Below, in pieces: positions 1 through 21,340 of a stretch of DNA of 64,000 bases. Both the position numbers and the translations under genes were made by a program. The stretch's first letter is position 1, and each line of letters opens with the position of its first letter. Source of the stretch: a virus; IMG/VR virus record IMGVR_UViG_3300025519_000001, positions 1 to 64,000 of that record, one strand, 5' to 3'. The notes beneath the pieces are model-generated. The model ran no database searches. It was not told where the DNA came from and was given only the letters and a program-made list of their open reading frames with translations.

Positions 1-217
1 AGGGCTGAAGTGTTGGAAATTGCAAGTGAATTTATTTGGAGGGAGGGATATAAAAGCGAATTTAACCTAGTCTACAAAGTATGGCGTGAGGGAGTGTTTA
101 TCGAAGATTGAAAAAAGCAGGGCTAGGGACATGTCCGAGAATGCCGGACAGCCGCTATAACAGCGGCCTCCGCTCAACCTGCTATAACAGCAGGAAAAAT
201 TTAGGAGGGATTTATCT

Positions 218-760
218 ATGAAACTGTCTCAACTGCTTACCACCAAAAAAATTATTGCTTCTGGCTTCGCCGCCATTCGCGGCCTTGAAGCCTATTCGAA
301 AGGTTCGGAACCCGTTGTTCTGTCGTCGCTGTCCCCGGCCATTCTGGCAGAGCAAGGCGTAACGGAATTTTACGCGCTTGTTCTGCCGCGCGGTGCCGTA
401 TATAACACGGCTGATGATATTATCGCCGCCGATTTGGACGTGCGTCGTTATCTTATCCAATCCGCCGATGCTAGCGGCATGGAAACTGTGATTGTCTCCC
501 GGCATCCTGGCACGGTCGCTCTTCTCCAAGCGCAATATCCGGGCGCTCAAGTGCTCGACGCCGTGACGCCGGACCAAATCGCCGGCAAGCATGTTGTCGG
601 GACGTTGCCGCCTCACTTGATCACGGCAGCAGGCGCATATACGGCTGCAACTATCCGTGATTTTGATTATACGCGAGACGGCGACTTGTCCGGAAATGAG
701 CTTGCAGAGCGACTTATTATCGCTGACCAGCCGCTTCAGGTCGTGGAGGTAGAGGCATAA
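218..760 (+). CDS. Csx16 (VVA1548)-like protein with an apparent tandem duplication; candidate cyclic-oligoadenylate ring nuclease / anti-CRISPR
   Basis: C-terminal half has the Csx16 signatures IVSRHPG...VVGTLPPHL...RDGDLSGNEL; N-terminal half (VVLSSLSPAILAEQGVTEFYALVLPRG...DVRRYLI) resembles a degenerate second copy; RBS GGAGGG. Confidence 0.7.
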   Translation: MKLSQLLTTKKIIASGFAAIRGLEAYSKGSEPVVLSSLSPAILAEQGVTEFYALVLPRGAVYNTADDIIAADLDVRRYLIQSADASGMETVIVSRHPGTVALLQAQYPGAQVLDAVTPDQIAGKHVVGTLPPHLITAAGAYTAATIRDFDYTRDGDLSGNELAERLIIADQPLQVVEVEA

Positions 761-1066
761 TATATTAAGATGGAGGTATTGGAATTGGAAGATTTAACAC
801 TGGACGATATTATAACAGTTTTTGACGGCCAACACAAAGACCATAAACATATTTTTTATGATGGATGGCCCAGTCTGCCGCACATAACGGCGGACGATTT
901 GCGCGATTATCAGCGGCCCTTTTAGTTGTTTTTACCATGCTAGGACGCATAACAGCAACATGATACAATTACATACAGTATAGGCGCTGTTGTGCGTCCG
1001 ATGGATGGTAAAAACATCCACTATAAAAATAAAATATTACATAACAAAAAAAGGAGATGTTTTTAA

Positions 1067-1591
1067 ATGGAAGTTCGAATCTATGTTGCCAATCTCGCCG
1101 CCTATAACGCTGGTCGTCTTGTCGGAGAGTGGATCGACCTTCCGCTTTCCAACGAAGAACTGCGCGAAAAAATCCAGTCCATTCTCGACGCCTGGAACGA
1201 TGGCTTTTCGCCGTCGGAAGAGTGGGCCATTCATGATTACGAAGCGCCTTTTGAGATTGGAGAATACGAAAGCCCATATAAAGTGAATGAATGGGCGGAA
1301 AAATTGTCTAGCATTAACGAAGATGAAGAAGTTATCAGCGCCATTTTCGGCGGTTTTTCCATCAAAGAAGCGTTAGAAATTCTTGAGAATGGCGAATACA
1401 GGGTATACAATGACTGCAACGACATGGCAGACGTTGCTTATGCATGGTATGAAGAAACCGGACGGCTTGCGGAAATTGAAAATGTACTGCCTGTATCTTA
1501 TGTCGATTGGGACGCAATCGGTAGGGATATGGAATTAGAAGGGACGTTTATCTATGCCGGTAATGGCGTATATGTTGAAATAACAGATTAA
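1067..1591 (+). CDS. ardA: Antirestriction protein ArdA (DNA mimic, inhibits type I R-M)
   Basis: IYVANLAAYNAGRLVGEWIDLP, EEWAIHDYE and YVDWDAIGRDMELEG motifs; very acidic; RBS AGGAG. Confidence 0.95.
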   Translation: MEVRIYVANLAAYNAGRLVGEWIDLPLSNEELREKIQSILDAWNDGFSPSEEWAIHDYEAPFEIGEYESPYKVNEWAEKLSSINEDEEVISAIFGGFSIKEALEILENGEYRVYNDCNDMADVAYAWYEETGRLAEIENVLPVSYVDWDAIGRDMELEGTFIYAGNGVYVEITD

Positions 1592-1674
1592 CTACAACGC
1601 TTTTCAGCCGTATAACAGTCCACAAGTGCTATAATGGACTTGTGGACTGTATAAAAACCAAAGGAGGCATAAAC

Positions 1675-4600
1675 ATGGAAACATCCAAGTTTTCCGGATT
1701 GTACGAATATTTGGGTTTCGCGATATATAACGCCGGTTCCCGTCACGAATGGGATATTGAGCCTATTGGATGGGATATTCGAGCCATTGAGCGCTGGAAA
1801 GCATCTTCTTTTTCGTTTCGAACACTGGCACAAGCTAAAAAGTGGATTCGGGAAAATGCCGATAACATTAAGGAGAGTGATTATAAAGCATGAAGGAATG
1901 AACATTATATTGCATTATACTATACGATCCATCGAAGTAATACATAGAAGCCAATAGGAGGTTCAACAATCATGTCCAGATGGTTAATCATTTTCAATCA
2001 ATACCAACCAAACGAAACGCGCTATGAAATTATGGCTTCCACTTGTGACGAGGCTATTATGACAGCCATGAGTGAAGCAAACATCTCCAAACGTCCGCCA
2101 AATATTTCTGCTCAAGTGAAGGAGGAATAATCGCCATGCAAACAATGAGTGAATATAAAAAATACAATTATTCAGGTAAAATTTTGGACGTTCTCTATTA
2201 CTCTATAACAGACGATACTCTATATATCAAATACAATGGCAAACAAGCAATGCGAAAAATTCAACAAACAAGCGAATATACATACAAATTTACAAAAACA
2301 CTCGTAAAAGCAATTAACGGCGCGGAAGGTTTACGTCGCTTCTTCGTTTCATGTCATGACGCTGACAGTCCGTTTAATCGTTCGTTTTTTGATACGTTGG
2401 TTAAACTTGTTTCCTAATATGTTATAACAAACAGCAACGCCATAATAGCGCTTGAAATACTCATTTCATGAATATATGGAGGAATAAAAAATGAATAAAT
2501 GCCTTCTGTATATCCTTGTAACTTTCGTCGATTCTGATTTTAATTTTGACGAGTACGAATGCGCAGATTTGGTGGAAGTAGCAAGACTTAGGGAGGAATT
2601 AGAAAACGATAACTATAAATTTGTATCCGCTCAACCTGTCTATGGTTGATAAAAGTCAATACATTACAAGTAAGACAGCAGCCCATGAAATGCGTTTATT
2701 TCATTCGGGATTGATGATATCCTTTTGATTGTATAACAACCGTCTAGGCGGTGTCTGTATAACAGACGAGCAGCCTTAAGTCTAGAGCGTTACGCGCTAT
2801 ATATTGGCGCGTAGATGGCTAGTAAAAAAAGTTAAAGGAGTAATGTTTTATGAATATTGTAACACGTCCACTTGATGAACACGACTATGAAGCCATGAAA
2901 GCAGAAAAGGAAGAAAGGGAAGCAATCGAAGCTATGATGAACTGGGCAGACAATTTTAAACTTGCATTACAAGAAAAGCGATTTTCTGCGGCAAAAGTTG
3001 CACTCGACAGAATGAATAGCATACTTTCGGATTATGTATAACAGATTGAGGAGGAGTAGTTCACATGACTATCAAACAAGCAAAAGAACTAAAGCGCGGC
3101 TCCGTTATCCTCATCAATCACATAACAGGAAAAGACGAACTCGCCCGTGTTGTCAGATGGGATGAACGCGCACAAGGAATTGACTATCACGCCATTAGTG
3201 GCGGAGGAAGTATTTGTAAACCCGAACATATCATAAAAGTGCTTGACGAAAAGCCCTTTTATGAATCGGAAATATGGGCACAAGCATGGAAAGAAAAATG
3301 GAATGAAAACTATAAAAGAAGCCGAAACGCGCTATAACAGCGCGTCCGTATACGGTGGCAACGTGTACGCTGATGATGGTAAGCCAATATGTAGGAGGCA
3401 TAAAAAAATGAAAGAATGGAAGCGAATTATTGCTGATGCAGGCTATGTGCCTACAAAAAATGGACTTGTTTCATATCTTGACGAAAGAAACAAACTTCCT
3501 TTCATTTGTCCGTTTTGGTCCGAAAAAATCAAATACTATCGCAGTTTAACCATAACAGAACTACTGAAGTATATGGAGGAATAAAAAATGAAAACTAACA
3601 ATAAAAATCGCTTTTTTCGCGACTTTTCCTTTTCTGTTTATCGTTATTCTCCCGAATCCTTCCGGCTTTACTACAAAGGAAAAGAAGTCAAACTTTCGGA
3701 CGATGAACGCTTTAACATGGGATATGCAGCCATAACAAAAGGCAAGCAGGAGGTTTTAAAACATATCAAACGCTGGACGCGCAAAAAGTCTACACTTGCC
3801 AAACGTGAATATATGCCTATCCTTGCAATTCTTTCAGACGATAACAGCGAATACTATCATATTGGTGTCCGTGTCAATCGTTATAACATGATGGAAAAGT
3901 TGTCCGTTTATCAATGGATCAAAGAGGCTTTTAATGATGGGCGTTTTGCTATAAAAACGACAACGGCGAAACTGGACGCGAATTTTAAACCCTATGATGT
4001 TCAAGAAGATCAACACGAAAAGAAATTAGGCAAACGGATTGTATTTATTTAAAAGCAAATAATACATTAACAGTTGAATCATACTATAACAGCAAAGGAG
4101 GGACGATTGACGAAATAACAGCATTAAAAAAATATGTAGGAGAGTGTTAAAAATGAACAAACAGGATAACAACAATAACAGCCAATCGGCATGGGATCTA
4201 GTACGAACATACAGACAAGCAGCACAAAGAGCACAAAAAATGTATAAAAAAGGTAAACCGTTTGATGCTAACAGCATTAAAGCGTTTGAACTATATGTGT
4301 CCTTTTCACGTAAGATGATTAATGTAAAATTGTAAAGGAGTGACTAAACAATGCTAGGTAAATGCGTTCATTATGTATCAGGTATTGAAACAAAGCAGCT
4401 TGTAAAAGTTGATCACTACAAAGGATTCGACTTTTATAAGCTACGCAAAAACGCTAACACAGACTGGACGATGATATATTTTCAGCATGACGGACATTTT
4501 TTTCCGATTAGTAACAACGTTGATAATATTAAAAACTTTTTAGATAATAATTCTAACTTTGACATTGCGACGTTTATCGTTTCCGAATTTGAAGAATCAT

Positions 4601-7600
4601 TAAAAACGGGCGCAAATGTATCCATGGGATATGCACAATATCTAGGACGCGAACAGGAGGCGCTGGAAGCCGTTAGGCGTTTCCGAGAGCGCAAGGAACA
4701 AGAAAAGGCGGAACGTGAAGCGAAGAAAGTAGAAGAAGAACGGAAGCGACTCCAGGAGAAGGAAAACGCCATAACAGCAGCGGAACAAGACTACAAAGAA
4801 AATAAATATATTAATGGAGACATTTTTTTAGAATTGTGCGACAAGTATAATATTACAATCCCCATTCGTACTAGAGGATGGATTAAAGAGAATTTAACAC
4901 GAATCAAGTATAACAGCGAAAGAAGTGTGTCATACAGTCATACGGGCAATCCGTCAAAAAGCATTGTCGATATTGCATTTAGTCTCTATAACAGTTTGAC
5001 GGAAAGCGAACAGGAAAGTGGAGAATATGTCACGCTAGACGAATTAAACAATTTATTCGGCGTGAATGCCTAATAACAGGAGGCCTCTCCCATGTCCACA
5101 ATTCGCGTACTGCCTAACGGCGCATTGGTCAATTCATATCGAATCATCGGCACGTCTACAACAGTCTATGAAGCGTTTGAGCCTTCATCCTACACTGGGA
5201 ATCATTCGTGCATTCAGCGCTTCAATGATCGCGTTTATGGCGCTATCAGCAGCAGGAGAACAAGAAGAAGAGAGGATAACAGCAAAGAAGCATTACAACA
5301 TATTTTCGAAGCATTTCCCCATTTGAAACAAGTTGATTATACTATTGACGAATTTATGGGAACGATTGAAACAATTAACGAATAGGAGATGATAAAAATG
5401 AAAATAACAGTTAAATCTTATAAACCTTTGTTTGCAAAAAAAGTAAAATATGTCGCTTCATTCGGACAATTCCAGGAAGAAGGTAATACGAAAGAAGAAG
5501 CGAAGCAGAACCTTATAACAGCGCTTGAGTGGTATTTCAGCAATACAGGCAACGAATTGACAACTAAAGTTATTCCCGAAGCTGGCGTAACTCTGTTCAT
5601 GCTTAGAACGTTCGCAGGATATGAAATAAGAACAGTCTATCATGATGGAAGAATTTCCATGGGAACGAGTCTATATGGACGTTTAAGCCATAGGGAAGCA
5701 TTAGAACGCCTTAATAGTCATGTAGAAGGATATCAAGCAGTAAAGGCCGTATAACACGAATACATAAACAATGGGAGGTTTATATCTATGTCTCAAACTA
5801 TAGCAGGACAAATGTATAACAATCATATCAAGGAAAGTCTCTTGTCTGGTAAACCTGTAGAATTGAGTATGAAAGACTTTTTGCCTAAAAGCCAGTATAA
5901 CAACAAACAAAAACAATACCAAAAAAACGAATTTGAAAAAGAAATTATGGCAGAATTGAAGCGACTCCAAAGCGAGTATATAGGATTTGAAAATATCCAT
6001 CTTCGCATATCGTTGCTTAAATCTCATGTTATGGAAATGATGGCGAATGTTGAAGATATGGAAGATGTAAAAGAAATTTATAGAGTTTATAAAAATATTG
6101 CTTGGAATAATCCTATCTAATTTAACAACCAATAACAGCACACTCCCATAATATCGGCTCCATATGGTATTATGGGAGTGTGTATACAAAGGAGCGGATA
6201 ACATATGACTCATTTCACGTTTACGGGTTACTACGCAGGACAAACTTTTTGTGGAGTAGCACGAAACGAAACGGATAAATATATGCACATTCAAGGCTCT
6301 AATACTCCTATCATGAAGCGTCTTTTGAGCGGGAAAGAGAAATTATGTCCCCATTGTTGAGAAATCTATTTATCTGAAGGTGAGGATGAGGGCGATGAAT
6401 GAGACAATAAAGCAAGTTGAAGATGAAATAAATCGAATAACAAAAGAAATTAAAACATGTGATAGCAGTGAACGCATCAAGGAATTGCAGAATGAACGTG
6501 ATGAATGGTCTATGATTTTAGGAATCATGTTAAACAAACAGAATACATAACAGCTATGTTTGAATCAAACCAGTCTTTCATTATCACAAACGGAGATAGA
6601 TAAACAATGATTCTAACTATAATTGGAATTATACTCTCTGTGTTTTGTGTTTTATCGTTGCTATTGGGAATTGTCGGGTTATTTAATAAAGAGGATTATT
6701 CCTATAGTGGCAATAGAAGTTATAATAGTATAGGGCCGTTTGGAATGGCATTTGTTTTCGGATTGATTGCATATACTTTGCTTCATGTGCAATAACACAA
6801 TAAAACAAGTATTTCATGACCATATAATAGGAGGCTTTAACAATGGAGAAGTATTTTATTAAGGATCATGGCGACGATTTTGAAGTACTAACAGAAGGGC
6901 AGGCTAAGGGAACGAACGCCATTTCTTTGTTTGAATATCTCAAAAAGCAACTAGATAGTGTCGATGCTTCGTTCTATCTTTATCTCCATGAATTTCCTGT
7001 GTTTGGGGATGAAATAGGTTTAAAGCCAGAAGAGGTTTTACCGACACTTCAAAGGGCAGCAGATTTCCTTGGAGGCATGACACGTTCTCAAGTATACGAC
7101 GAACTTTGCCAACATGATAAATTGGCTGTATTCTTCAAAAGTGAAGCAAAAACTCTTATTAAGGATGCTCTTATCAAGAAAGCAAATTCATTGCTCAATG
7201 AAGCATTAACTCTTTGATAAACAACGTGGAGGTTGTATAACAGCAACCTCCAAAGATCCCATGAAAACGGCATTTCAAGTCTATACAAAAAAATATCAAG
7301 CCGACAGCCGATGATAGAACGGCAGGCCGAAAGGATGGTTAAAAATGGAAAAGGTAAAAGTAACGTATCAAGCAGGACAATCAAGATATTCTAACGCAAG
7401 CGTAGACTACATGCTTGCAGAAGTTGATGGCATCGAACTTTATGCAGAGCGTCCGCCCGTTGAAGATGATGAGACTGGAAGTTACGAGGAGTTGAAATCT
7501 GCGATCATCGAGCAGGCCCAGGCGCATAACATCGACGTGGGACTCTTGGAGTTTTGGTACGACGACGCACAACATTCTAGGGAGGTTTAAACCATGGCAA

Positions 7601-8310
7601 TTAAATTTAAACATCCCGAATATGATTTTTCGTTCGAGGTTAAATTCATTATTAGAGACTTGGAAGCAGTAAAAACTAATATCCAAAATCCGTTTATTAT
7701 GGCTTCTGGCACACTCGATAATCATTTATTTGACATCCCGCATTCCGCAAATTATACAATCAAAAATTCTCTTTTTAGTCTCATGCAACATATAACAGGG
7801 CAACAAAACATATGGGACATTTGCAAAACCGCATTTGATAAAGACGAGGAATGGGGAAAGTGGAGAAATGATGGTTTGCTTTATGAAGCATACCATAAGT
7901 ACACAATAAAGCCTGCATACGTCGATCAAGTCTTATTTGTTATTGATCAGTGGATCGCTGAAGCAAAGGAAATCATGCAGAAAATGATTGACGCAGAAGA
8001 AGAAAAGAAACGACAGCGCGAAGCAGATTATAACAGATTTACAATCATTGAAACGTATCAATTAATCATGCCTACAGGCGGCGAAGATGGCACAGACGGA
8101 TATTTTGACGGATTGATCCGTAATAATAGCACGGGAATATCTATCCGAGTAGTAGCTAAAAATATATTTGATGTTGGTTTCTTCTCGTATCCTAAACGTG
8201 TTGAAGAGACAGAAGAAGTGTTTAATAGACAATCTTGGACAGACGACGAAAAGGATGCTTGCGCTTGGATTGGTAAGTTTTCGCCTTTTACTACTGCTAT
8301 TCGTATGTAA
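1675..8310 (+). other. Block of about 17 co-oriented small hypothetical early genes (e.g. 1675-1893, 2136-2417, 2850-3041, 3065-3337, 3588-4052, 4351-5073, 5092-5385, 5398-5754, 5788-6120, 6607-6795, 6843-7217, 7345-7590, 7594-8310)
   Basis: ORF track plus strong GGAGG/AGGAG RBSs; no family recognised. Confidence 0.75.
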
Positions 8311-8406
8311 TAACAACACAATGTTATAACAGCCCAAGCGGAGCCGATCCGCTTATTTATTTTAATAGCAAGGATGAAAATAAGGATTTAAAATAAAATA
8401 TTATAC

Positions 8407-8435
8407 TTTACTAGTGTAAAATACAATGATATGAT
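8407..8435 (+). promoter_or_regulatory. Sigma-A promoter (TTTACT-17-TATGAT, extended -10)
   Basis: Close to consensus; follows a terminator-like hairpin at about 8336-8363 and precedes ORF 8478. Confidence 0.6.
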
Positions 8436-8477
8436 AGTTTTAGAGTTAAAAATTACATATGAGAGGACTGATCGTCA

Positions 8478-8846
8478 ATGTCCTATACAGTTACAGAAGC
8501 GAATATTAAAGCATGGGAAAACCAAATTAAGAAATTCGAAAACATGACAGATGTTAATAACAGCTACTTTGAAGTGTTCCGCGATTCAAAATATCCTGAT
8601 TGGCAAACGGACTCCAAACAAAAAGCAAGTTGGCTGCAATATAAAAGTAGAGTTGGTAACTTTTTGGATTCAATTGCCAAAGATGTTGTAACAATGACAT
8701 ATGAAGAAATCGCTAAGTATATCGAAGCAAAACCAAATACAAAAAATCATATTAACGGCTTTTTGCTTTTCATTATCAGAGAAAACGTTCTCAATTGCCG
8801 TGAGCGAATCAATAAAGATTTATTGTTTTGGGTTTTAGGTTTTTGA
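8478..8846 (+). CDS. Hypothetical protein, possibly a stand-alone integrase N-terminal (SAM-like core-binding) domain
   Basis: YKSRVGNFLDSIAKDVVTMTYEEIAKYI resembles the helical pattern of integrase core-binding domains; no catalytic domain. Confidence 0.4.
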   Translation: MSYTVTEANIKAWENQIKKFENMTDVNNSYFEVFRDSKYPDWQTDSKQKASWLQYKSRVGNFLDSIAKDVVTMTYEEIAKYIEAKPNTKNHINGFLLFIIRENVLNCRERINKDLLFWVLGF

Positions 8847-9880
8847 CTATAACAGCAGTAGTACACGAAATCAGAATTTTATGAGGGAGACAAATAATAA
8901 GATGAAAAACAAAAATGTGAAATTTGACTCCAATGTACCCAACTGGGTTAGAATTGCAATGTCAGAAGAATTTTGTATGGGATGGAATCCAGTTAAAGAA
9001 AATGAGGATATTTATGTAAAGTTCATTGAGCATAGAAATTTTGAAGAAATTATTATGACTGTAAACGATGAGGCATATGAATTTGACCGCTTTTCAAGAT
9101 GTTATTTCCTAGTAAAATAAGTGAAAAATAAAAAAGATGGAGTGATAACAATGAAAGAATATCGAATTGAGACACATTATTTTGTAAACGGTGAATGGTT
9201 TGCGGATATCTGGCTTTTTGAGAATGGGATGCCGATTGATTTTATTAAGAAAGTGAAAAGAAATGATGATGGAAGCATGTCGCCTGAATACGGTAATAAA
9301 CTTGGAACAAACTGGATTGCTCCGCAATTTGTTTATGCATAACAGCCGATGAAATAAGGTTTTCATTCAATCTTGAAAGGATGATAACAGATGAAATTCA
9401 ACGGAGTAAAGTTGACAGAGGAATCAATTTTAAAGGCGCGTCAATGGTATGCTGATAATGCTAGAGGATGCATTGAGGAAGTACAGAACGGTAGCGTTAA
9501 AGTAAATGATCCTGAAGCGTATATTAAATGGCGTGAGAAACAAATTGAGGATGCTTTAGCGGGACGCTATGATCATACATTAGCGTTCTTACAACGGGCT
9601 TATTATATTCAAACTGGTGAATGTGTGGCATTGTTGCCATAACAGACAATGAAATAATGCTTTCATGTAAAGTTTAAAAATAAAATATGGAGGATACATA
9701 TGAATGGAATCATTTATTTGGTAGCATGGCAAATAACAGGTGTAATTCTTTTCTTATCAGTTTGTGCTGTTATTGGTTTGAATATGACGGTTTTTGCTGA
9801 TATTGAAGAGGAAGAAGAATGTTTTGGTTATAAAAATAAAGTTTTGGTTTATTGGAATGATAACGAAAAATCTTAATTAT

Positions 9881-9926
9881 ATGAAGTCACCGTAAAACCC
9901 CTGCGTTTACGCATGGGGAGTGTCAA
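9881..9926 (+). mobile_element. IS200/IS605 mini-remnant (single hairpin, PATE-like)
   Basis: CCCCTGCGTTTACGCATGGGGAGTGTCAA; the 3' end GGGGAGTGTCAA is identical to the right end of the element ending at 61088. Confidence 0.7.
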
Positions 9927-9957
9927 AAATAATTATTATCAAGGAGGAATTTAAGCT

Positions 9958-11043
9958 ATGCAAGCAGAAATTGTATTTGAGGAAAATGTAGAAAAAAATT
10001 TGATGGAGGACAAAATCATGGTAGAAGATAATAATAGCAAGCAATATACATCCTTGGCTGAACGTATTGCAGCAGAAAGGATTCAAAAATCGCAAGCACA
10101 ACCAAGAAGCTTGCGAAATATCGCAAGAAATCCCAATTCGTTTAACTTTGATTTGGCAGTACAAAGAAACTTGAGATGGACAGATTTCCAAGTTAGCGAA
10201 TTGATTGAATCGATTTTGCTTGGATATCCGATTCCTCCAGTTTACGCCGTTAAATCAGAGGATAATATTACATGGTGCATTGATGGTAAGCAAAGGTTTA
10301 AACGTGCTATTATTCCTTTTATGAGGGACGAAATTGCAATTGTAGATGATTTTCGTCCAATCTTCGGAGTGGACATTTCTGGGAAGAAGTTTTCAGAACT
10401 TCCGCCAGAATTTCAGGAAATTCTCGAGGATTTTAATGTTGTCATTTATCAATTCGAAAAGTTGACTCCTGACCAAAGAGATGATTTTTTCCGCAGATTG
10501 AATAGCGGAACTCCTCTTTTGGCAATTGAGTTGACACGCTCCATTCTGGGTTCCGAATTGCTTGATTATATTAACAGCCTCATTGAGACGCCTTTCATGC
10601 AAAAGGTGGCTTTGAGTGACAAACAACGAGATAAATATGTAGATCAAGAGTTGGTCTTGCAAATGATTTCTATTATAACAGAACGAGGATATGACATCGG
10701 AAGTAAAGAAATGCGGGAATTTGCATTGAAACTTCGTATTGATGGGCTTTCGCAGGGAGAAAAAGACAGGATTCAAAAGACATTTGACTTCCTTTCCGTA
10801 GCCTTTGCTTCAACTGACGAGAAAACAGCTAAGAAGATCCTTAAGAAAGCAGATGTTATTGGAATTGTTGGCGCTGCTGTAAAAGCAACTTGTACTCCAG
10901 AGGTCTTCAGCGAAAAATTAAGTATTTACATTGCTAATCAAGCTTCTGGATCGAATTATGCGAATACGAAACGAAATAAAAGTTCTTCGGCAGATAGCGT
11001 AAAAAGACGTATTGAAATTTTGATTGGAGTATTGGAAGAATAA
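9958..11043 (+). CDS. DUF262 (ParB/Srx-superfamily, GmrSD N-terminal-like) domain protein
   Basis: VQRNLRW...LIESILLGYPIPPVY...IDGKQR and FFRRLNSGTPL motifs; no obvious HNH/DUF1524 domain. Confidence 0.85.
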   Translation: MQAEIVFEENVEKNLMEDKIMVEDNNSKQYTSLAERIAAERIQKSQAQPRSLRNIARNPNSFNFDLAVQRNLRWTDFQVSELIESILLGYPIPPVYAVKSEDNITWCIDGKQRFKRAIIPFMRDEIAIVDDFRPIFGVDISGKKFSELPPEFQEILEDFNVVIYQFEKLTPDQRDDFFRRLNSGTPLLAIELTRSILGSELLDYINSLIETPFMQKVALSDKQRDKYVDQELVLQMISIITERGYDIGSKEMREFALKLRIDGLSQGEKDRIQKTFDFLSVAFASTDEKTAKKILKKADVIGIVGAAVKATCTPEVFSEKLSIYIANQASGSNYANTKRNKSSSADSVKRRIEILIGVLEE

Positions 11044-11054
11044 GTATTGTTAAA

Positions 11055-11088
11055 AGGCTAGGAGAGTGTTTGTCGCTCTCCTAGCCTC
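11055..11088 (+). terminator. Intrinsic terminator-like hairpin
   Basis: AGGCTAGGAGAG...CTCTCCTAGCCT right after the DUF262 stop codon. Confidence 0.65.
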
Positions 11089-11172
11089 AATAAAAAATAA
11101 TTTCTTTTTATAACAGCATGTGCTATATTGTTTATAGAAACGAAATATTATACATAACAGGTGATCAGATTT

Positions 11173-11388
11173 ATGTCGAACATCTATAAAGAAAATGGCT
11201 ATAACAGTCGTGAAGAATACCTTGAAGAACTTGCAGATGAATATGGTATTCCATATGAAATGGTTTATAGTCTGTGGGAAGTCTTAGGGGATGAAGAAGC
11301 CTTTGACGGGCTTGTAAGCGCCTGTGAAGACGCAGAAGCGTTGATGACAAGCGAAGAAGACGAAGAGGAGAATGAAGAATGGGACTGA
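11173..11388 (+). CDS. Small, highly acidic hypothetical protein
   Basis: ORF with RBS AGGTG; about one third D/E residues. Confidence 0.7.
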   Translation: MSNIYKENGYNSREEYLEELADEYGIPYEMVYSLWEVLGDEEAFDGLVSACEDAEALMTSEEDEEENEEWD

Positions 11389-11687
11389 TTAGGGTTATCG
11401 TCAAAGAGCCACAGAAGGATGCTTATGTGACTGACATTTCAAATACGCTCGAAGCTAAACAGAAAATTGTTGGTGGATATATAGAAGCCGTTCCCTTTGG
11501 AATTGACCATATTCTTATCTTAAATGAAGAAGGAAAACTAATTGGACTTCAACCGAATATTTTATGGAATGATGATGTGATCATGGGAACGATCATTCTA
11601 GCGCGGAATGAAGCGCCAGAATTTGGTTCCATTCGTCCAGAAGAAGAAGGATGGATGATTCAGATGCTTAACAGAGCGTCGGTATAA
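11379..11687 (+). CDS. DUF3846 family protein
   Basis: LEAKQKIVGGYIEAV...ILNEEGKLIGLQPN motif. Confidence 0.8.
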   Translation: MGLIRVIVKEPQKDAYVTDISNTLEAKQKIVGGYIEAVPFGIDHILILNEEGKLIGLQPNILWNDDVIMGTIILARNEAPEFGSIRPEEEGWMIQMLNRASV

Positions 11688-13451
11688 GTATATGAAACAA
11701 CGATTTCATGGATATTTCAAAAATAACAGACAAAAGGTGTTATTATGAATGACAAAGAATTGTTTGAAGTAGTGAATAAGGCACTCTTTCAAAATAAATC
11801 ATGTTCTTTTGACACATGGTATACTATCATTGTAAATAACAAACCAATATTTGAGGCTGCAATTAACAGCAAAGGATATATACATATTCGAAAACCCATC
11901 AAAAAAGTTGATTGGTACGAAAATCGAAATGATGTATTTCTTTATCGAAAATGGCGATTTAACAGCAAAAAGGAATTAGTTGATGCTGGAATGATCGAAG
12001 GAACAAAACCGAATAAAGAAGATATTAAGGAGGTTATTTTATGACGCTGGAACAGTTTTTTGATTTGCCTATTGACACGCAAGAGCAATGCGATGAATGG
12101 CTTAGACTTTATCGTAAGTGGTATAAAGCACAAACTAAAAGAACGAAAAGGAGTCGATAACAATTGAAAAGACTTGCAGAAAACTTGAGAAGCCGATAAA
12201 AGCAGGATTTGATTAGAATAAAAATAATAATAGGATGGTGTTAAAAATGAAAAATTATGATAGCAGAGAGCAAATTGCGTATGATGAAGCCGCAATAATA
12301 GCAAGTGAAATTATGTACCAAAATAATGTCTATACAAAGAATAGGATAATCGACAGCGTAAGATTCGGAGATTATGAAAACCTTCAGTGTATTGTATTCA
12401 GGTGAGAAAAGGAAAGTCACAACGTAGAAATTTATCATAATGGCGAAGAGATTAAATATGTTGGAACTGGTTACAGTATGTATTAGTCGATGAAAGAATG
12501 ATTTTATAAGGAGTGATAAAAAATGACAGCAAGGAGAAAGATTGCTAACAAAATTTATGAGTTGGGAAATGGCGATACTTTTGATTTTCATTTTAAAACT
12601 GAGGATGGAACGACAATTTATGCGGCTGCTACGTGCATGAGGATTCATGACCTTAATAGGGTTATTGTGTCGGCGTATGGTAGAAATGAGTACGACAGAA
12701 TTATTAGTGAATTTGATACTGTGGCTGATATTGAGAAAAAGCTTGATTTTATTTGCGAATAACAGCGAATACAAAAGGCAAGAAATTTTATATATAAAAG
12801 GTGAGATAAAAGTAGCAGTATTCTTTGAAAAAATTAGCCCTAAAGTTTTGGAAGCAGCGAAAAAATTGGAAATGGAAGGTTATATTCGTATCAACAAGTT
12901 TGAACATGGTGAAAACTGGATGCAGATTGCAGATGAAGTTATTGATGAAGTTGCTTTGCTAAACGAATATAAAATTGAAGTTAAATGGTTTGATGGTTCG
13001 TGTGCGATTAGAAAGAGTAAATAAAAGATTATTTCACAAGAACAATAACAGCAGGAGGTATACATATGTTCAAGGTGACTACAATCGAATGGTGGAATGG
13101 TCATATAACAGTCGCAGAGTACCATTTCGACAATGTGCTGCATATGTACAAATTCATTCATCTGTGCGAACAAGACGGAATTAAGTATAAAGTTGTAAGA
13201 GTTAAAAATAATAATCAACAGAAAGGAGCATGACAGTTGGTCGGAATCCTTTTGTTAATTCTTTCAACTATTGCTGGTCTGCTGTTTGTTTTACTTATCA
13301 TCTTTGCGGTATTAAGAATTAAAACAACTATGAAAATAAAACAAATTAGGAATAAAATACTTGCTATAGAAGTTGATCGTAATGTTTTGCTACAGCAAAT
13401 TAAGCAGATTGAACAGGAAAGCCTATAAATAGTATCTTTGATCGGCATATT

Positions 13452-13573
13452 AAGTTGTAAAAAAGTTATAAGCAAGTTACCAGCAAGCTAAAAAACCGCA
13501 TAACAGTAAGGTTTCTTTATAATTTAGGGGCGGTTTTGCAAGTTAAATGCAAGTTAGAAATAAGTTATAAGTT
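13452..13573 (+). repeat. 11-bp-phased AAGTT direct-repeat array around an inverted repeat (iteron/centromere/att-like site)
   Basis: AAGTT or AAGCT at 13452, 13463, 13474, 13485, 13540, 13551, 13562, all in one 11-bp register; central AAAACCGC...GCGGTTTT. Confidence 0.7.
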
Positions 13574-14010
13574 AGAATCAAATGTCCATTTCGAGGAGAG
13601 TTGATAGTATGAAACTGAACAGGGATGATATCTATGTAGCAACATTTGTTCATTGTTTAGATGAAGCTGATATAATTCAACAGACCACCAGCGGACGCAA
13701 GTTCTATCGTTTAAAAAATTTTCTAGGTGATCTAGGTTATATTGTTAAGTCTGTAGAGTTAATCAATTAATTGTTTCGTGGGGTGCGAATAATGAATAAA
13801 AAGATTTCATATAAAGAAGCAATTGAACGAATTCAAAGGTTAAAATATACGTTTATAGGGAATCGTGATCAACTTCATGAGGAAATTGATCGTATTATTG
13901 TTATGACTAAAAAAGAATGAAAGCAAGGATAAGATGAAATGAAGAAGGACAATATTTATGAGAAATGTAGTAGGTGTTTTTAAAATAAAAAAATAAAATA
14001 TGTAAAACTA

Positions 14011-14040
14011 TTGACAATTAAAAACAAAATATGATAATAT
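14011..14040 (+). promoter_or_regulatory. Sigma-A promoter of the tRNA operon
   Basis: TTGACA at 14011, GATAAT/TAATAT -10 region, AT-rich UP region. Confidence 0.75.
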
Positions 14041-14053
14041 AAATTCATCAAAT

Positions 14054-14135
14054 GGGGAGCGAGGCGTCCGGTAGACGCCGACGGTCTTATACACCGTGAA
14101 TAACGAGCTTGGTTCGACTCCAAGGCTCCCTACCA
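14054..14135 (+). tRNA. tRNA-Ile(UAU)
   Basis: Cloverleaf: acceptor GGGGAGC/GCTCCCT, anticodon arm ACGGT-CTTATAC-ACCGT, T loop TTCGACT, encoded CCA; 10-nt variable region. Confidence 0.85.
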
Positions 14136-14136
14136 T

Positions 14137-14213
14137 ATCCCCTTAGTTCAATTGGATAGAACAACAGCCTTCTAAGCTGTAGGTTAGAGGTTCAATTCCT
14201 CTAGGGGATGCCA
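14137..14213 (+). tRNA. tRNA-Arg(UCU)
   Basis: Acceptor ATCCCCT/AGGGGAT, anticodon arm ACAGC-CTTCTAA-GCTGT, CCA. Confidence 0.95.
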
Positions 14214-14214
14214 T

Positions 14215-14300
14215 GCGGATATGATGGAATTGGCAGACATATCGGACTTAAAATCCGAGGTCATTGAGACGTGAGGGTTCAAATCCCTCTATCCGCACCA
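14215..14300 (+). tRNA. tRNA-Leu(UAA)
   Basis: Anticodon arm TCGGA-CTTAAAA-TCCGA, long variable arm, CCA. Confidence 0.95.
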
Positions 14301-14301
14301 T

Positions 14302-14377
14302 GAGCCATTAGCTCAGTTGGTAGAGCACCTGACTTTTAATCAGGGTGTCGAAGGTTCGAGTCCTTCATGGCTCACCA
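14302..14377 (+). tRNA. tRNA-Lys(UUU)
   Basis: Canonical Bacillales-type tRNA-Lys, anticodon arm CCTGA-CTTTTAA-TCAGG, CCA. Confidence 0.97.
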
Positions 14378-14392
14378 TTCATGTCAACTTTT

Positions 14393-14412
14393 AGCGCCTT
14401 CAGGCGCTTTTT
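14393..14412 (+). terminator. Terminator of the tRNA operon
   Basis: AGCGCCT-TC-AGGCGCT followed by a T run. Confidence 0.7.
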
Positions 14413-14723
14413 GTGTATATGCGCAAATGTAGTCGAAATATAGTCGATTAAATCTTAAAATAATAGTACAATAAAAATAAAAAAGGAATTGGTTTCTTTT
14501 GGTTAAAATGATCACGCAATATCAATCGGATTTTAGTTCGCTTAAAACCAGAGGATGGTATGTTGTTGTCGATATGAAGGGCAAAGTTAAGGTTTATAGT
14601 TGGTTTGTTTATTTAAATTTAATTTCAAATGTTATTTTAAAAGCAGATGCGGTTTATTGGAGTGATGATCGGGAGGAGATTCACAAGGTTTTTGGTGTTT
14701 AATAAAAGAGACATTTTATGGTG

Positions 14724-14764
14724 AAAAAGATTTAAGACCACCAAACCGATTGGTGGTCTTAAAT
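14724..14764 (-). terminator. Intrinsic (probably bidirectional) terminator closing the CRISPR-like RNA
   Basis: Perfect 15-bp stem ATTTAAGACCACCAA/TTGGTGGTCTTAAAT with a U tract on the minus strand. Confidence 0.8.
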
Positions 14765-14779
14765 TAAGGAGAAAAATTC

Positions 14780-14886
14780 ATTTCAATCCACGCTATTACA
14801 GCTAATAAAAGCTGTTTCAGCGAATAAAAAAAGGGGGGGGAGAGACATTTAGAGAGTTTCAATCCACATTCTCTAGTGAGAATGAC
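14780..14886 (-). CRISPR. Type I-C-like CRISPR mini-array / solitary-repeat RNA (two divergent repeats, one 31-nt spacer), no cas genes in window
   Basis: Minus strand: GTCATTCTC-ACTA-GAGAATGTGGATTGAAAC (14886-14856) and TTCGCT...AGCGTGGATTGAAAT (14824-14780); both carry the I-C 3' handle TGGATTGAAA(C/T) directly after a hairpin. Confidence 0.75.
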
Positions 14887-14899
14887 TTTGATCAATTTA

Positions 14900-14928
14900 A
14901 TTCTAAAATATATGCTTTATTTAGTCAA
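14900..14928 (-). promoter_or_regulatory. Sigma-A promoter for the CRISPR-like RNA
   Basis: TTGACT-17-TAGAAT on the minus strand, 13 nt before the first repeat. Confidence 0.75.
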
Positions 14929-14981
14929 GCGCTAATTTGTGCTAAAATGTTATCATAAAAATTAAGTAAGGTGGGTTTGCT

Positions 14982-15395
14982 ATGGGGAGACTGTCAATTA
15001 AACAACGTATTCTAAAGACATCGGACATCAACCGTAGAAAAGAATTGGCGTTAAACTGGCATCAGGCATGGGCTGGAAAAATGAAAAGAGAATTGTCGTG
15101 GTCGATTGAGGAATTGGAAACGTTAGATTTGCAACAAATATTTTGGCGTCTAAGATTCATAAAAGCCGAAACAGAGAAACATTTTGCTGCACTTCCAAAT
15201 GTATTAGATAGTTTGGACATCTCAGGCGACAAATATAGAAATACTGCTTCTCAATTCATCAGTCTAATTGATGGTATTATGCATAAATTAAATCTAGAAA
15301 GGAATAGCCGAAACACAAAGTTGTTGCTTCAGAATGCTTATTTTGAATACAGAAATTTTTCAGACGAATTGGTGTCAGTGATCAAAAACAGATAG
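14982..15395 (+). CDS. Hypothetical protein
   Basis: 137-aa ORF with RBS AAGGTGGG, divergent from the CRISPR-like RNA. Confidence 0.7.
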   Translation: MGRLSIKQRILKTSDINRRKELALNWHQAWAGKMKRELSWSIEELETLDLQQIFWRLRFIKAETEKHFAALPNVLDSLDISGDKYRNTASQFISLIDGIMHKLNLERNSRNTKLLLQNAYFEYRNFSDELVSVIKNR

Positions 15396-15640
15396 GGTGG
15401 TTTTATGGCCTATATCTCGCCAGCACAAACAAAAGCTAAATCATATGCTGCAAAATATGATTATAAACTTCGCAAAATTAAGGATGGCTATGTTAAAGTG
15501 ATTCGACCCAATGGGTCGATTGTAACGGTTAAAGATTGGAATTCTGCTTGGGAATTAATGATGGGTGAGACGGTTAAAGTTGACCCCAATAAAAACATTT
15601 TCGATTTTTGAAGGCTTCAGGCATAGAAAAGTTCCGCTGA

Positions 15641-16126
15641 TTAACCAGCGGAACTTTCGTTTTTCAGAAAACCTAATTTTCGGGCGTTGTTTAACATGTT
15701 GATCAGGTTATCTAAATCTTCACCATTAGGGATTTCTTGAATTTTTTGTTCCAATCTGACGTTTTCCCTACGGAGCTTATTGTGGTCTCTTTGTAATCGT
15801 TTATAAGCAGCGGTTGCTTCTTCAACTGCTTTCGTCAGTATTTCAAATGGATCTTCACTGTTTTCTGCGATATCAGGAATATCAAGTTTTTGATTTTTAT
15901 TTTCACGAAGCGTCCTTTTTTCTTGTTTTGCTTTTTCAAGTTCATCTTCGTATTGCTTCCTAACTTTACTATTCCAACGGAAACCACAAGCTGCTGGAGT
16001 TCTTGATAATCTTTCCGCCGCTACTTTAAATCCTTCCCCTTGTGTGCCACCGTTTCTTACGCTTTCAAGAATCGCTTCAGCAAGAATGTGGTCATTTTCT
16101 GCACTCCAACTATCTTTCCTGTTCAT
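15641..16126 (-). CDS. rsfA: RsfA/YlbO-family (Myb-like) sporulation transcriptional regulator
   Basis: MNRKDSWSAENDHILAE...GGTQ...LSRTPAACGFRWNSKVRKQY; start moved to ATG 16126 after RBS GAGGCG. Confidence 0.9.
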   Translation of the reverse strand: MNRKDSWSAENDHILAEAILESVRNGGTQGEGFKVAAERLSRTPAACGFRWNSKVRKQYEDELEKAKQEKRTLRENKNQKLDIPDIAENSEDPFEILTKAVEEATAAYKRLQRDHNKLRRENVRLEQKIQEIPNGEDLDNLINMLNNARKLGFLKNESSAG

Positions 16127-16206
16127 TCTTCTCGCCTCGTTTATCGATTTATTATATTTATATCCAAAATCTTCATTACCTATACATACAAAAAAATATA
16201 TAAAAT

Positions 16207-16220
16207 AGAACATTTGTTCC
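16207..16220. promoter_or_regulatory. LexA (SOS/Cheo) box between rsfA and mazF
   Basis: AGAAC-ATTT-GTTCC matches the Firmicutes GAAC-N4-GTTC box; 2 nt upstream of promoter TTGATA-17-TATACT (16223-16251). Confidence 0.7.
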
Positions 16221-16304
16221 CGTTGATAAAAAAGAAAAAATTATATATACTGTTTATAGTGTAAAAAAATAAATTATTAGGTTTAACATTTGGGAGTGGA
16301 ACGG

Positions 16305-16697
16305 ATGTTAGCCACGTTGGAAAGAGATATTTCGCAAAAGATTAACACAATACGTAGAATGGATATTTATTTTGCTGACCTTCGTGGAAACAATGCAGGT
16401 TCAGAACAGACAGGAATAAGACCAGTTTTGGTTATACAAAATGATATTGGCAATACTTATAGTCCAACTATTATCGTTGCGAATATTACATCATCGGAAA
16501 CAAAAGCAAAATTACCTGTTCATGTTCCTTTGAAAGCTAGTAAGACTGGGTTGAGAAATGATAGTATTGTTTTGTGCGAACAAATAAGAACAATTGACAA
16601 GTCTAGGCTAATTGAAAAAATAGGAACGGTGGATAAAGAAACTCAAAGGGAAATTGATCTTGCGCTTAAAAAGAGTATTGGTCTGATTAATTTTTAA
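16305..16697 (+). CDS. mazF: MazF/PemK (NdoA-like) endoribonuclease, no MazE upstream
   Basis: DIYFADL...GSEQTGIRPVLVIQNDIGNTYSPTIIVA...LCEQIRTIDKSRL; likely start ATG 16305. Confidence 0.93.
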   Translation: MLATLERDISQKINTIRRMDIYFADLRGNNAGSEQTGIRPVLVIQNDIGNTYSPTIIVANITSSETKAKLPVHVPLKASKTGLRNDSIVLCEQIRTIDKSRLIEKIGTVDKETQREIDLALKKSIGLINF

Positions 16698-16722
16698 TTT
16701 TTATAAATAGGAGAGATTCTTT

Positions 16723-16887
16723 ATGAGTTTTTTGATTGTTGGTTCTAAAAAAGGCGTATATGACACTAGAGAATTGGTTATTGAATTGGAGAGTCGTGGT
16801 GTTCAAAACGCCGAAATGATCGTTGATGATGTTATCAAAAAAAGAAAAGCGACAATTTGTGGGTTGAGAATTCTCACTCTTCAATAA
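16723..16887 (+). CDS. 54-aa protein probably co-transcribed with mazF (not in ORF track)
   Basis: RBS AGGAGAG; MSFLIVGSKKG...LRILTLQ; followed by a terminator hairpin at 16893-16923. Confidence 0.65.
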   Translation: MSFLIVGSKKGVYDTRELVIELESRGVQNAEMIVDDVIKKRKATICGLRILTLQ

Positions 16888-16946
16888 TTTGTAACCTCTT
16901 ATGGATATCATAAGAGGTTTTTTGTTTAAAAATAAAATATTTAATA

Positions 16947-16976
16947 TTGACAAATGTAAAACAAAAAAATTATAAT
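16947..16976 (+). promoter_or_regulatory. Sigma-A promoter TTGACA-18-TATAAT heading an accessory gene array
   Basis: Both hexamers match consensus exactly. Confidence 0.8.
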
Positions 16977-17049
16977 TTACTTAAGATCGATACATAGAAG
17001 CGATACTGAGCGGTGCATGAAACTATATTTTTATGGGGAGTTGAAACGA

Positions 17050-20000: not shown

Positions 20001-20062
20001 ATTTGAGACATCCTGATAAACGTTTGTTTGAGTGGTCTGAAGCAGAAATGAAGAAATATTGA
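17050..20062 (+). other. Array of small hypothetical genes (17050-17358, 17389-17649, 17649-18032, 18143-18310, 18446-18691, 18738-19220, 19277-19723, about 19754-20062)
   Basis: ORF track, RBSs, junction palindromes. Confidence 0.75.
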
Positions 20063-20070
20063 TTGTTTAT

Positions 20071-20114
20071 TATGTTCCCGTAAAATCCCTGTCTTTAGGC
20101 ATGAGAAGTATTAA
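20071..20114 (+). mobile_element. Degenerate IS200/IS605 mini-remnant
   Basis: TTTAT followed by CCCTGTCTTTAGGCATG, the same hairpin core as the left end at about 59791. Confidence 0.6.
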
Positions 20115-20953
20115 AAAGAAAGGGGCGAATAAGCCGTGAAACACAGTTTCTACGACAAGAACGGAAAATTATTTGTTGATTGCTCCGAATGCAAACGTGG
20201 CGGCAACGGAGACAAGAGTTGCGGCGCGGGTTGGACGGTTAAAAGAGGCGGACATAGCGGCTGTTTTCTTGGGGCATTGCGTGACGGAATACCTATGCAA
20301 AGGAGCGAATCCAAGTGAGTAACTACACCATCAGGCATGACGAATACGGTCATGCTACTGCAATCGAGCGAGAAGGCTATACTGTATTGCACCTGCTCTC
20401 CGGCACCGAACGGAACGAGCAGGAAGTCGAAGGGATTGTACGAGAACTGAATGGAGTCCAGCGTCTTAGGGCGGCGTTGGCGTCGTTACCCGACAAAATC
20501 ATGGATATGAAATGGACAGACACTGAAGAGCTTACGTTCCCACTGGACAATCCGACAGCAGAAGAACAAAGCGAATGGTTAGATGAGTTTATAGACCGGC
20601 TTGATATGCATGTTCGTAACATCATAGACAACGAGATCGAAGGCCTCTCCGCCACAACCGAATCAACATGCAAATGCGGCGGAACAGGCGGATATAACCT
20701 AAAGTTTGGACAACTGGGCGAAGAAACGTTTCCCTGTGAAGTGTGCAGCGCGGACTTCTTCAAAAAAACCGGGCTGGAACGGGTGAGGGAATATTGTCCT
20801 GACCATCCCGATGTGAAGCCCGAAACATCCAGTAGCCATACATGGACACAGGACGAAAACACATATTTCGTGAGTTATGTCAAATATTGTCCAACTTGCT
20901 ATCGCGTTATAAGCACGGAAGCGCGGTTGTAGACGAGGAGAAGGAGGATAACG

Positions 20954-21340
20954 ATGCGTGAGTACAAGTTTCGCGGCAGACGGATAGATAACGGCGAATG
21001 GGTGCATGGATACCTGATCGAAGACCGTTACATTGTCGGCCCGGTTGTGGAGTGGACGGAGGACTATTTCAACACCGAATTCTGGCTCAAAGTCGATCCT
21101 GAAACGGTTGGGCAATATACTGGCCTGAAAGATCGGAACGGGAAAGAGATTTATGAGGGGGACATTCTCGAAATTGGGTACTACCGATATAAAGTTGAGT
21201 TTTCGGAAGGATGCTTCGGCGCTCGTGATGGGTACGGATTTTCACCATTTCGTAACAGTATATGGGGGATGGGCGGCGTGATCCTCGGAAATGTTTTTGA
21301 ACATCCCCATCTGCTGAAAGGAGACGGGAACGATGCGTGA
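20954..21340 (+). CDS. YopX family protein
   Basis: MREYKFRG...VDPETVGQYTGLKDRNGKEIYEGDI...LGNVFEHPHLL. Confidence 0.92.
   Translation: MREYKFRGRRIDNGEWVHGYLIEDRYIVGPVVEWTEDYFNTEFWLKVDPETVGQYTGLKDRNGKEIYEGDILEIGYYRYKVEFSEGCFGARDGYGFSPFRNSIWGMGGVILGNVFEHPHLLKGDGNDA

Follow-up and report, generated by a model that had tools for sequence, protein, structure and literature searches.

We analyzed a 64,000-nucleotide stretch of viral DNA (the window), which makes up positions 1 to 64,000 of a 154,759-bp contig (IMG/VR record IMGVR_UViG_3300025519_000001) classed as linear and 96% complete, and focused on ATAACAG, a heptanucleotide that recurs in a single orientation through its first 13.5 kb. Positions are those of the window unless given as contig positions. 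Judged from its sequence, the genome is that of an SPbeta-like siphovirus, with a terminase sharing 44% identity with YonF of SPbeta and 47% with its counterpart in Lysinibacillus phage LC76P1. Early and middle genes lie on the plus strand, from 142.7 kb over the contig ends to 85.7 kb, and late genes on the minus strand. A large late protein (contig 139782-142373, minus strand), for which PHROGs gave no function, stands in the position of the SPbeta YonO RNA polymerase, and its size and position suggest that it is the YonO counterpart. A homologue of the tyrosine-recombinase-like master repressor is encoded at contig 142729-143775.

The ATAACAG array covers positions 157 to 13506, with 44 copies on the plus strand and a single copy on the minus strand, at 9767. 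The remaining ~50 kb of the window contains only two plus-strand copies (18555 and 18632) and two minus-strand copies (57063 and 61850). The initial annotation, made from the letters of the window alone, had reported about 44 plus, about 1 minus, and 2 further plus copies, and our counts match these exactly. Eight more plus-strand copies at contig 150497-154700 show that the array runs on over the contig ends as one block, in which 52 plus and 1 minus copies occupy ~17.8 kb, against 3.0 to 3.1 expected under an order-2 Markov model; the strand polarity and the density that had been described both hold. A perfect TTGACA-N17/18-TATAAT sigma-A promoter lies at contig 148839-148867, 1.6 kb ahead of the first word, and the 7.7 kb upstream of the block are free of ATAACAG. 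The end of the block at 13506 is as abrupt as had been claimed: the last word sits in the loop of a AAAACCGC...GCGGTTTT hairpin that has repeated AAGTTA units on its flanks (13452 to 13573, plus strand), and a small plus-strand ORF (13771 to 13920) comes next.

The proposed association of the word with anti-defense genes was borne out. The block encodes two ArdA anti-restriction proteins (1067 to 1591, plus strand, with a word at 1580, and contig 152071-152598), a GmrSD_N (DUF262)-like protein (9958 to 11043, plus strand), a DUF3846 protein (11379 to 11687, plus strand; PF12957, 69.9 bits), an ArdC-N fragment, and DUF7680. Searching cultured phages for near-identical counterparts of the block gave no match, and a search for relatives of a 361-residue protein of the array found none.

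We then evaluated the enrichment against several controls. The window contains 49 matches to ATAACAG on both strands, against 10.18 ± 2.98 (maximum, 18) in dinucleotide-preserving shuffles, and 21 copies lie within ORFs of the array, against 3.96 ± 1.77 (maximum, 10) in 500 synonymous-codon shuffles. A related genome, G011, behaves similarly, with 24 in-ORF copies against 8.1 ± 2.3 in synonymous-codon shuffles. The enrichment, which the initial annotation had offered to give up should it vanish after codon and dinucleotide correction, thus survives both as well as the Markov control. ATAACAG is the most overrepresented 7-mer of any 15-kb segment of the genome, with a z score of ~31, all others reaching at most ~9. 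It is an exact word: one-mismatch variants are not enriched, except for a mild excess of ATAACAA (17 against 5.3 expected), and the flanks of its seven invariant bases are weak, with G being rare at position -1 and C being present at +1 in 25 of 52 copies. A literature search found no paper mentioning AUAACAG, TATAACAG, or UAUAACAG.

Within the block, the copies occupy reading frames 0 and 1 and intergenic sequence (frame 2 would read TAA), and 40 to 56% of them lie inside ORFs. With conservative gene calls, the word is ~2.6 times denser between genes than in coding sequence, where its density is still ~10 times the expectation. The 25 nucleotides before start codons (bin -25 to -1) hold 16 copies, compared to 8 expected; ATAACAG often adjoins the ribosome-binding site (ATAACAGGAGG), and one copy directly precedes a hairpin resembling an intrinsic terminator at 8336-8354. 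Several simple explanations could be discarded. The word is not a promoter, as its flanks are flat beyond -1/+1 and no -35/-10 hexamers occur at fixed spacing; it does not reflect evasion of type III restriction through a single DNA orientation, as the late genes carry 9 inverse copies at normal frequency; by inspection, it fits neither GTTRRRY nor RYYYAAC, the core motifs of integron attC sites; and complementarity to the anticodon loop of tRNA-Asn does not account for copies that are not limited to in-frame AAC.

The initial annotation had stated that the word is often found in hairpin loops and had deduced from this that it is recognized in single-stranded form. All five hairpins that it quoted exist, but only ~5 of the 52 copies are so placed, and four of the five hairpins are part of, or directly adjoin, matches to self-cleaving ribozymes. 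Only the hairpin at 7228 to 7251 (plus strand; GGAGGTTG-TATAACAG-CAACCTCC, with the word in its loop) stands alone, past the end of an ORF. Moreover, RNAplfold predictions for four genomes gave ATAACAG the same unpaired probability as 7-mers of the same composition, with no excess. Display in hairpins is thereby ruled out as a general property of the word, and single-strandedness, as deduced from the loops, loses its footing.

The first ribozyme match is a twister-sister at 115 to 186 (plus strand; Rfam RF02681, 42 bits for a gathering score of 34). Its last hairpin has a variable loop, which is taken up by the word at 157, and the word at 184 begins in the 3' flank of the ribozyme. Two stronger twister-sister copies, with scores of 62.2 and 49.4 bits, are located at contig 153904-153974 and 154632-154702. 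The hairpin CCTGCT-ATAAC-AGCAGG (178 to 194, plus strand) comes straight after the twister-sister and ahead of a ribosome-binding site, and this module is repeated at contig 154694-154711. Cleavage of the twister-sister presumably falls in the conserved GCUCA strand and would leave a downstream mRNA beginning two bases before CCUGCU-AUAAC-AGCAGG, which might then form the 5'-terminal stem-loop of that mRNA. The second match, at 2753 to 2820 (plus strand), is pistol-like (RF02679) and is preceded by the word-bearing hairpin GTCTGT-ATA-ACAGAC; the match itself (2772-2820) scores 30.3 bits, below the gathering score of 34.5, and covers only model positions 24 to 68, i.e., the 3' two-thirds, no full-length match at gathering score being found in this interval. 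The third is a type II hammerhead at 3320 to 3388 (plus strand; RF02276, 33.9 bits for a gathering score of 37), in which every model position is matched, the CUGAUGA and CGAAAC cores are intact, and the word at 3334 makes up the loop of one stem. The words associated with these ribozymes are found in loops and flanks and thus occupy positions that are free to vary.

The placement of some copies would suit a protein that binds AUAACAG in RNA without cleaving it and thereby represses translation, stabilizes transcripts, or prevents termination. T4 RegA and the lambda N/nut system are analogues of such a binder, the latter being here multiplied along an operon. The enrichment of words just before starts, where they are fused to the ribosome-binding site, the copy ahead of the terminator-like hairpin, and several 5-nucleotide loops on GC stems (GCU-AUAAC-AGC), which we take to resemble boxB hairpins, all agree with it. 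We nevertheless regard a noncleaving binder as rather unlikely, given that the majority of copies are neither in hairpins nor near starts, that the word shows no accessibility bias, and that no candidate protein was found.

We next considered how the block varies in natural populations by comparing contigs of four bioreactor or mixed-culture metagenome runs (X2, X3, X4, and X6) with positions 1 to 14000. This region is hypervariable, with many cassettes skipped or replaced. Breakpoints at 6123 and 3394 recur in three runs each, and some cassettes are bounded by ribozymes, position 2003 or 2769 being joined to ~3320. At position 171, a loose end has the sequence found at the opposite contig end, which further supports the continuity of the array over the contig ends. 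Such exchange raises the idea that the words mark the joints at which phages swap anti-defense cassettes, and indeed 16 of 30 joint ends have a word no more than 35 nucleotides away, compared to ~25% expected at random. Words and joints alike cluster in intergenic sequence, however, which by a rough estimate explains most of the excess, so that their proximity is not evidence for the word as a crossover point. In addition, several joints coincide with the starts of ribozymes rather than with words, more than 40% of the words are inside ORFs, and seven bases are too short for homologous exchange. We consider a role as recombination joint highly improbable.

We then looked for the array in other phages. 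Two related genomes, G001 and G003, were found via their DNA polymerase (77% and 72% identity, respectively), and two others, G004 and G011, by scanning for three words in close succession. Co-oriented ATAACAG arrays are present in these four and in the cultured Psychrobacillus phage Perkons (MT325768.1), so the array is kept in related phages, as the initial annotation had asked to be verified. The array comprises 27 copies over 8.8 kb in G004 (130 kb, 28% G+C), 52 copies over 15 kb with a 52:0 polarity in G011, and 27 plus and 0 minus copies at 5396-22596 in Perkons; at a further locus, L173, the polarity is 39:1. The array-bearing phages range from 27% to 35% G+C, and G004 is as distant from the phage studied here as SPbeta is, with 27 ORFs in common at a median identity of 32%. 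SPbeta and LC76P1 show no excess of ATAACAG or of any comparable 7-mer. The gene content of the arrays differs almost entirely between phages, and ArdA orthologues carry ATAACAG at differing alignment columns. The word and its density are thus conserved and its positions are not: the array is real, it is conserved, and it is under selection, which acts on the density of the word rather than on its position.

Two high counts proved to be of another nature. In G007 (L117, a 41.7-kb viral contig), 74 one-strand copies spaced by multiples of 9 nucleotides point to in-frame coding repeats, a different phenomenon, and this contig is a false friend for searches based on word density. G009 (19:1) was also excluded, as its copies lie in large ORFs, three of them at 30-nucleotide spacing. 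Full-scoring pistol ribozymes (63 bits) were found in Perkons at 3064-3136 (plus strand) and in G003 at 99591-99662 (minus strand), in both cases 1 to 2 kb upstream of the array's first word.

Perkons allows the array to be placed relative to the ends of a packaged genome, as its record corresponds to the packaged form, with defined 264-bp direct terminal repeats (PMC13245101). Its array begins within ArdA (ORF11), 5.4 kb from the left end, points inward, and stops at 22.6 kb, occupying ~4 to 16% of the genome. It ends just before ORF54, a homologue of the ORF at 13771-13920 that follows the last word in our phage, and the abrupt end of the array is therefore syntenic. In both phages, a word-free leader of 5 to 8 kb that encodes a helicase lies ahead of the array. 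The repressor homologue precedes the array in the phage studied here and follows it in Perkons.

This arrangement could be expected of a polar DNA signal on the first-entering end, read by a translocase, a nuclease, or a protective factor, which would protect or pace the entry of anti-defense DNA in the manner of Chi, KOPS, or SRS or of a T5-like staged transfer. The initial annotation had named polar loading sites on first-entering DNA among its options, and the mapped termini of Perkons lend this one some support. As in the first-step-transfer region of T5 and the early region of T7 (with Ocr), where anti-restriction genes lie near a defined end and are transcribed inward, the anti-restriction genes of Perkons are near one defined end and point inward. 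Staged entry of the T5 kind would be conjectural for SPbeta-like phages, and neither T5 nor T7 is known to carry a word array. Chi, KOPS, and SRS are short polar words that are read by moving DNA enzymes in a density-dependent way, and they are genome-wide, host-specific, and spaced by several kilobases. ATAACAG is likewise short and strand-polar but is local, ~10 times denser (one per 340 bp, far denser than any known Chi or KOPS), and underrepresented outside the array. Recurrence of the same word in phages of 27 to 35% G+C argues against a Chi site of the host AddAB, the order of array and repressor gene differs from that in Perkons, and the leader helicases belong to different families, the RecD-like helicase of our phage being absent from Perkons. 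An entry signal of this kind seems quite unlikely.

To search for a reader of the word, we used tblastn to screen every ORF of the genome against relatives with and without an array. G001, G003, and G004 share with our phage four ORFs that SPbeta and LC76P1 lack, namely, those for a MazF, a RecD-like helicase, and two structural proteins. As Perkons lacks both structural proteins and the helicase (contig 144070-146343), the latter was discarded as a reader, and MazF remains the sole ORF that is present in all of G001, G003, G004, G011, and Perkons and absent from SPbeta and LC76P1. The candidate reader is a MazF/PemK-family endoribonuclease encoded at 16290 to 16697 (plus strand), 2.8 kb beyond the array. 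The mazF gene is inside the array in G001 and G003 and lies past it by 0.2 kb in G011 and 3.2 kb in G004, so that 5/5 genomes found without the use of MazF (these four and our phage) have it in or beside the array. Perkons and seven more loci, L173 among them, have MazF inside the array, but they were found through MazF and are not independent. A metagenome scan recovered close relatives of this MazF on two short contigs only and showed no arrays around more distant ones.

The MazF of our phage is close to Bacillus subtilis EndoA (E value, 3e-34), and its b1-b2 loop, ADLRGNNAGSEQ, has one residue more than that of Bacillus EndoA. B. subtilis MazF (EndoA) cleaves at U/ACAUA (PMC11780869). Transcripts of SPbeta and phi3T are reported to be enriched in MazF sites, an enrichment linked to arbitrium control of lysis versus lysogeny (bioRxiv 10.1101/2023.04.27.537455), and the lysis-lysogeny decision of these phages uses the MazEF module of the host (PMC10516654). 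We found that a second exact word, ATACATA, which contains UACAUA, is enriched in the sense strand of early and middle genes of Perkons, G001, G003, G004, and SPbeta, with 76 copies in 80 kb of Perkons (L261-L264) and 102 in 100 kb of G001 (minus strand), for ~15 to 18 expected in each, and 27 copies in 30 kb of SPbeta (90-120 kb); its excess is weak in the genome studied here. As ATACATA contains the published MazF site and as the SPbeta/phi3T enrichment is published, these arrays fit that enrichment directly, and by published evidence at least one polar word array in the SPbeta-like family corresponds to an array of nuclease sites. LC76P1, which has neither MazF nor array, contains in its first 62 kb (L011-L013) 5 sense copies of TACATA against 21 expected, and 30 antisense copies; its transcripts look as if they avoid MazF sites. 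The two words overlap as ATACATAACAG at 6543-6553 and 11150-11160.

The two words trade off against each other, and their use follows the type of the MazF b1-b2 loop. G011, with a noncanonical loop (RIGIIG), has sense observed/expected ratios of 7.2 for ATAACAG and 0.3 for UACAUA, and L173 (SGNAG) has ratios of 6.1 and 0.7. In our phage (RGNNAG), ATAACAG reaches 5.5 over the early and middle genes and ~17 in the block, and UACAUA reaches 2.5. Phages with an EndoA-type loop (SPVVG) range from 1.4 to 5.1 for ATAACAG and from 1.8 to 2.6 for UACAUA. Hence, the three strongest ATAACAG arrays pair with noncanonical loops, and two of these phages, G011 and L173, lack sense enrichment of UACAUA. As evidence on specificity, these loop differences are suggestive only. 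A tree of MazF proteins also clusters them by associated word (ATAACAG, GGTTAGCA, TACATAT, or poly-G), which shared phage ancestry explains equally well.

MazF genes of other viral contigs are accompanied by other polar words. In seven contigs of 44 to 51% G+C (L212, L217, L229, L232, L239, L240, and L242), whose MazF proteins form a well-supported clade, the word is GGTTAGCA, which reaches 21:0 in 20 kb, occurs about once per gene, and lies immediately next to mazF. L215 and L176 (both from one 130.8-kb contig), L205, L206, L209, L237, and L241 have further polar words beside MazF homologues, namely, TACATAT/GTACATA (34:7 in 20 kb) and runs of at least seven G (7 to 9 copies, none reversed).

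As a tentative reading, and the one that we find most plausible, we propose that ATAACAG tags a class of transcripts at the RNA level and that a nuclease with sequence specificity, for which the phage MazF is the leading candidate, reads this tag. The word would mark the sense strand of early anti-defense operons in one group of SPbeta-like phages, and AUAACAG would be recognized on the RNA by a sequence-specific factor, most plausibly an endoribonuclease and possibly the phage's own MazF-family enzyme. The entire transcript class could then be cut and switched off jointly, either after the anti-defense proteins have been made, at commitment to lysogeny, or upon induction. We infer each of the three elements of this proposal, i.e., action of the word on RNA, cutting at the word, and MazF as the cutter. 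The proposal is favored by the strict sense-strand polarity in every array genome; by a density that is kept while positions are not, as seen in gene content, ArdA alignment columns, and synonymous shuffles; by the family precedent of published MazF sites and polar ATACATA; by the phyletic profile of MazF and its adjacency to the array; by the loop type that tracks word use; and by the location of words at ribosome-binding sites and starts and in free ribozyme loops. Cleavage sites for the decay of early mRNA were among the options listed in the initial annotation, and the adjacency of MazF and the published enrichment of MazF sites in SPbeta and phi3T lend this option indirect support.

The comparison with SPbeta and phi3T goes further, as the phage family is the same, the word is likewise short, exact, and on the sense strand, and MazF is involved in life cycle control. 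In contrast to those phages, the word here is ATAACAG and not UACAUA, the MazF is phage-encoded, and the enrichment is concentrated in a block of ~18 kb at ~17 times the expectation, compared to ~2- to 3-fold over many genes. A second parallel is T4 RegB, a phage RNase that inactivates early transcripts at the 4-base sequence GGAG, overlapping the Shine-Dalgarno sequence. Like the RegB site, ATAACAG is short and often located beside the ribosome-binding site of early-class genes; unlike it, it has 7 bases and also occurs inside genes.

Several observations weigh against a MazF that cuts at the word. G003 and several other phages with arrays of 10 to 15 copies carry MazF substrate loops identical to those of the UACAUA-specific EndoA, and such a MazF can hardly read ATAACAG, unless the words came with exchanged cassettes. 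UACAUA is not depleted in the block of our phage (14 copies against 7 expected). The link between MazF and the word may equally stem from shared phage ancestry, and SPbeta-like phages could need a MazF for their lysis-lysogeny circuit, for which SPbeta borrows that of its host (PMC10516654). As to the RNA itself, the words are no more accessible than controls, and the GC-stem hairpins pair the last two bases of the word.

A further point against an RNA-level reader comes from the sequence outside the arrays. Summed over the early and middle genes of five genomes, ATAACAG is there ~2-fold underrepresented, with 23 copies against 44.9 expected in sense and 12 against 27.2 in antisense. Among 210 words of the same composition, it ranks 6th lowest in sense and 3rd lowest in antisense (CTGTTAT), the only words below CTGTTAT being those containing GATC or CTAG. 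A reader that acts on RNA alone would not be expected to produce the antisense deficit, which keeps readings on duplex DNA alive. Underrepresentation in both orientations fits the DNA-level reader of the entry signal discussed above, and it also fits recognition of duplex ATAACAG, or titration of a binder, in a silencing system akin to stoperators, in which a phage repressor or accessory protein would bind the oriented word and block RNA polymerase in the lysogen.

Stoperators of cluster A mycobacteriophages, bound by the immunity repressor (gp71 in L5), are mainly intergenic sites of 13 to 14 bp that are distributed genome-wide. They share with the ATAACAG array dozens of asymmetric sites in one orientation in a temperate phage. 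Here, too, every site has one orientation relative to transcription, and the phages are temperate, with the repressor homologue encoded at contig 142729-143775. ATAACAG departs from stoperators in having just 7 to 9 informative bases, against the 13 to 14 of the L5 sites, in lying inside ORFs for more than 40% of its copies, and in being limited to one 17.8-kb block. The profile comparison yielded no conserved candidate binder besides MazF. The known SPbeta repressor, MrpR, binds SPBRE, a 15-bp promoter element present in about ten copies (PMC10516654) and different from ATAACAG. Taken together, we view stoperator-like silencing as unlikely, though less so than the other rivals of the nuclease tag.

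Returning to the nuclease tag, a more general version of it can be formulated, which we offer as a speculation and think improbable at present. SPbeta-like phages might use a code of words for transcript classes, each word being read by a retuned MazF-family nuclease, with ATAACAG assigned to the anti-defense block, AUACAUA to early and middle genes, and a different clade using GGTTAGCA. A phage might thus eliminate one class of its mRNAs on demand, and the MazF of the phage studied here would have evolved a 7-base specificity for (A)UAACAG.

If ATAACAG does act as a tag for a nuclease or a binding protein, the phage would address a whole functional class of genes, its anti-defense arsenal, by a single short signal present even in unrelated genes that were newly exchanged, and anti-defense islands could be found from sequence alone. 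The tag would add a layer to the arbitrium and MazF lysis-lysogeny circuit, and were MazF the reader, it would represent a natural case of reprogrammed MazF specificity. Should the word instead be recognized on DNA close to the end that enters, these phages would provide their group's first case of an entry or protection signal encoded in sequence. With the cultured phage Perkons and Psychrobacillus sp. L4, these readings can be tested directly.

Beyond the array and the small ORF conserved with Perkons ORF54, a separate unit at 14011 to 14408 (plus strand) comprises a near-consensus promoter, three tRNA genes (14137-14374), a weak tRNA-like match (14055-14130), and a terminator. The mazF gene is followed by a partner ORF of 54 residues (16723 to 16887, plus strand) and a terminator (16893-16919), right after which lies a second perfect TTGACA-N17/18-TATAAT promoter (16947-16976). 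Farther along the contig (76407-78593, plus strand), we found a gene for a 728-residue protein in which polynucleotide kinase, phosphoesterase, and RNA ligase are fused (PHROG 8238), an RNA repair enzyme that would act on 5'-OH and cyclic-phosphate ends such as those made by ribozymes and MazF.

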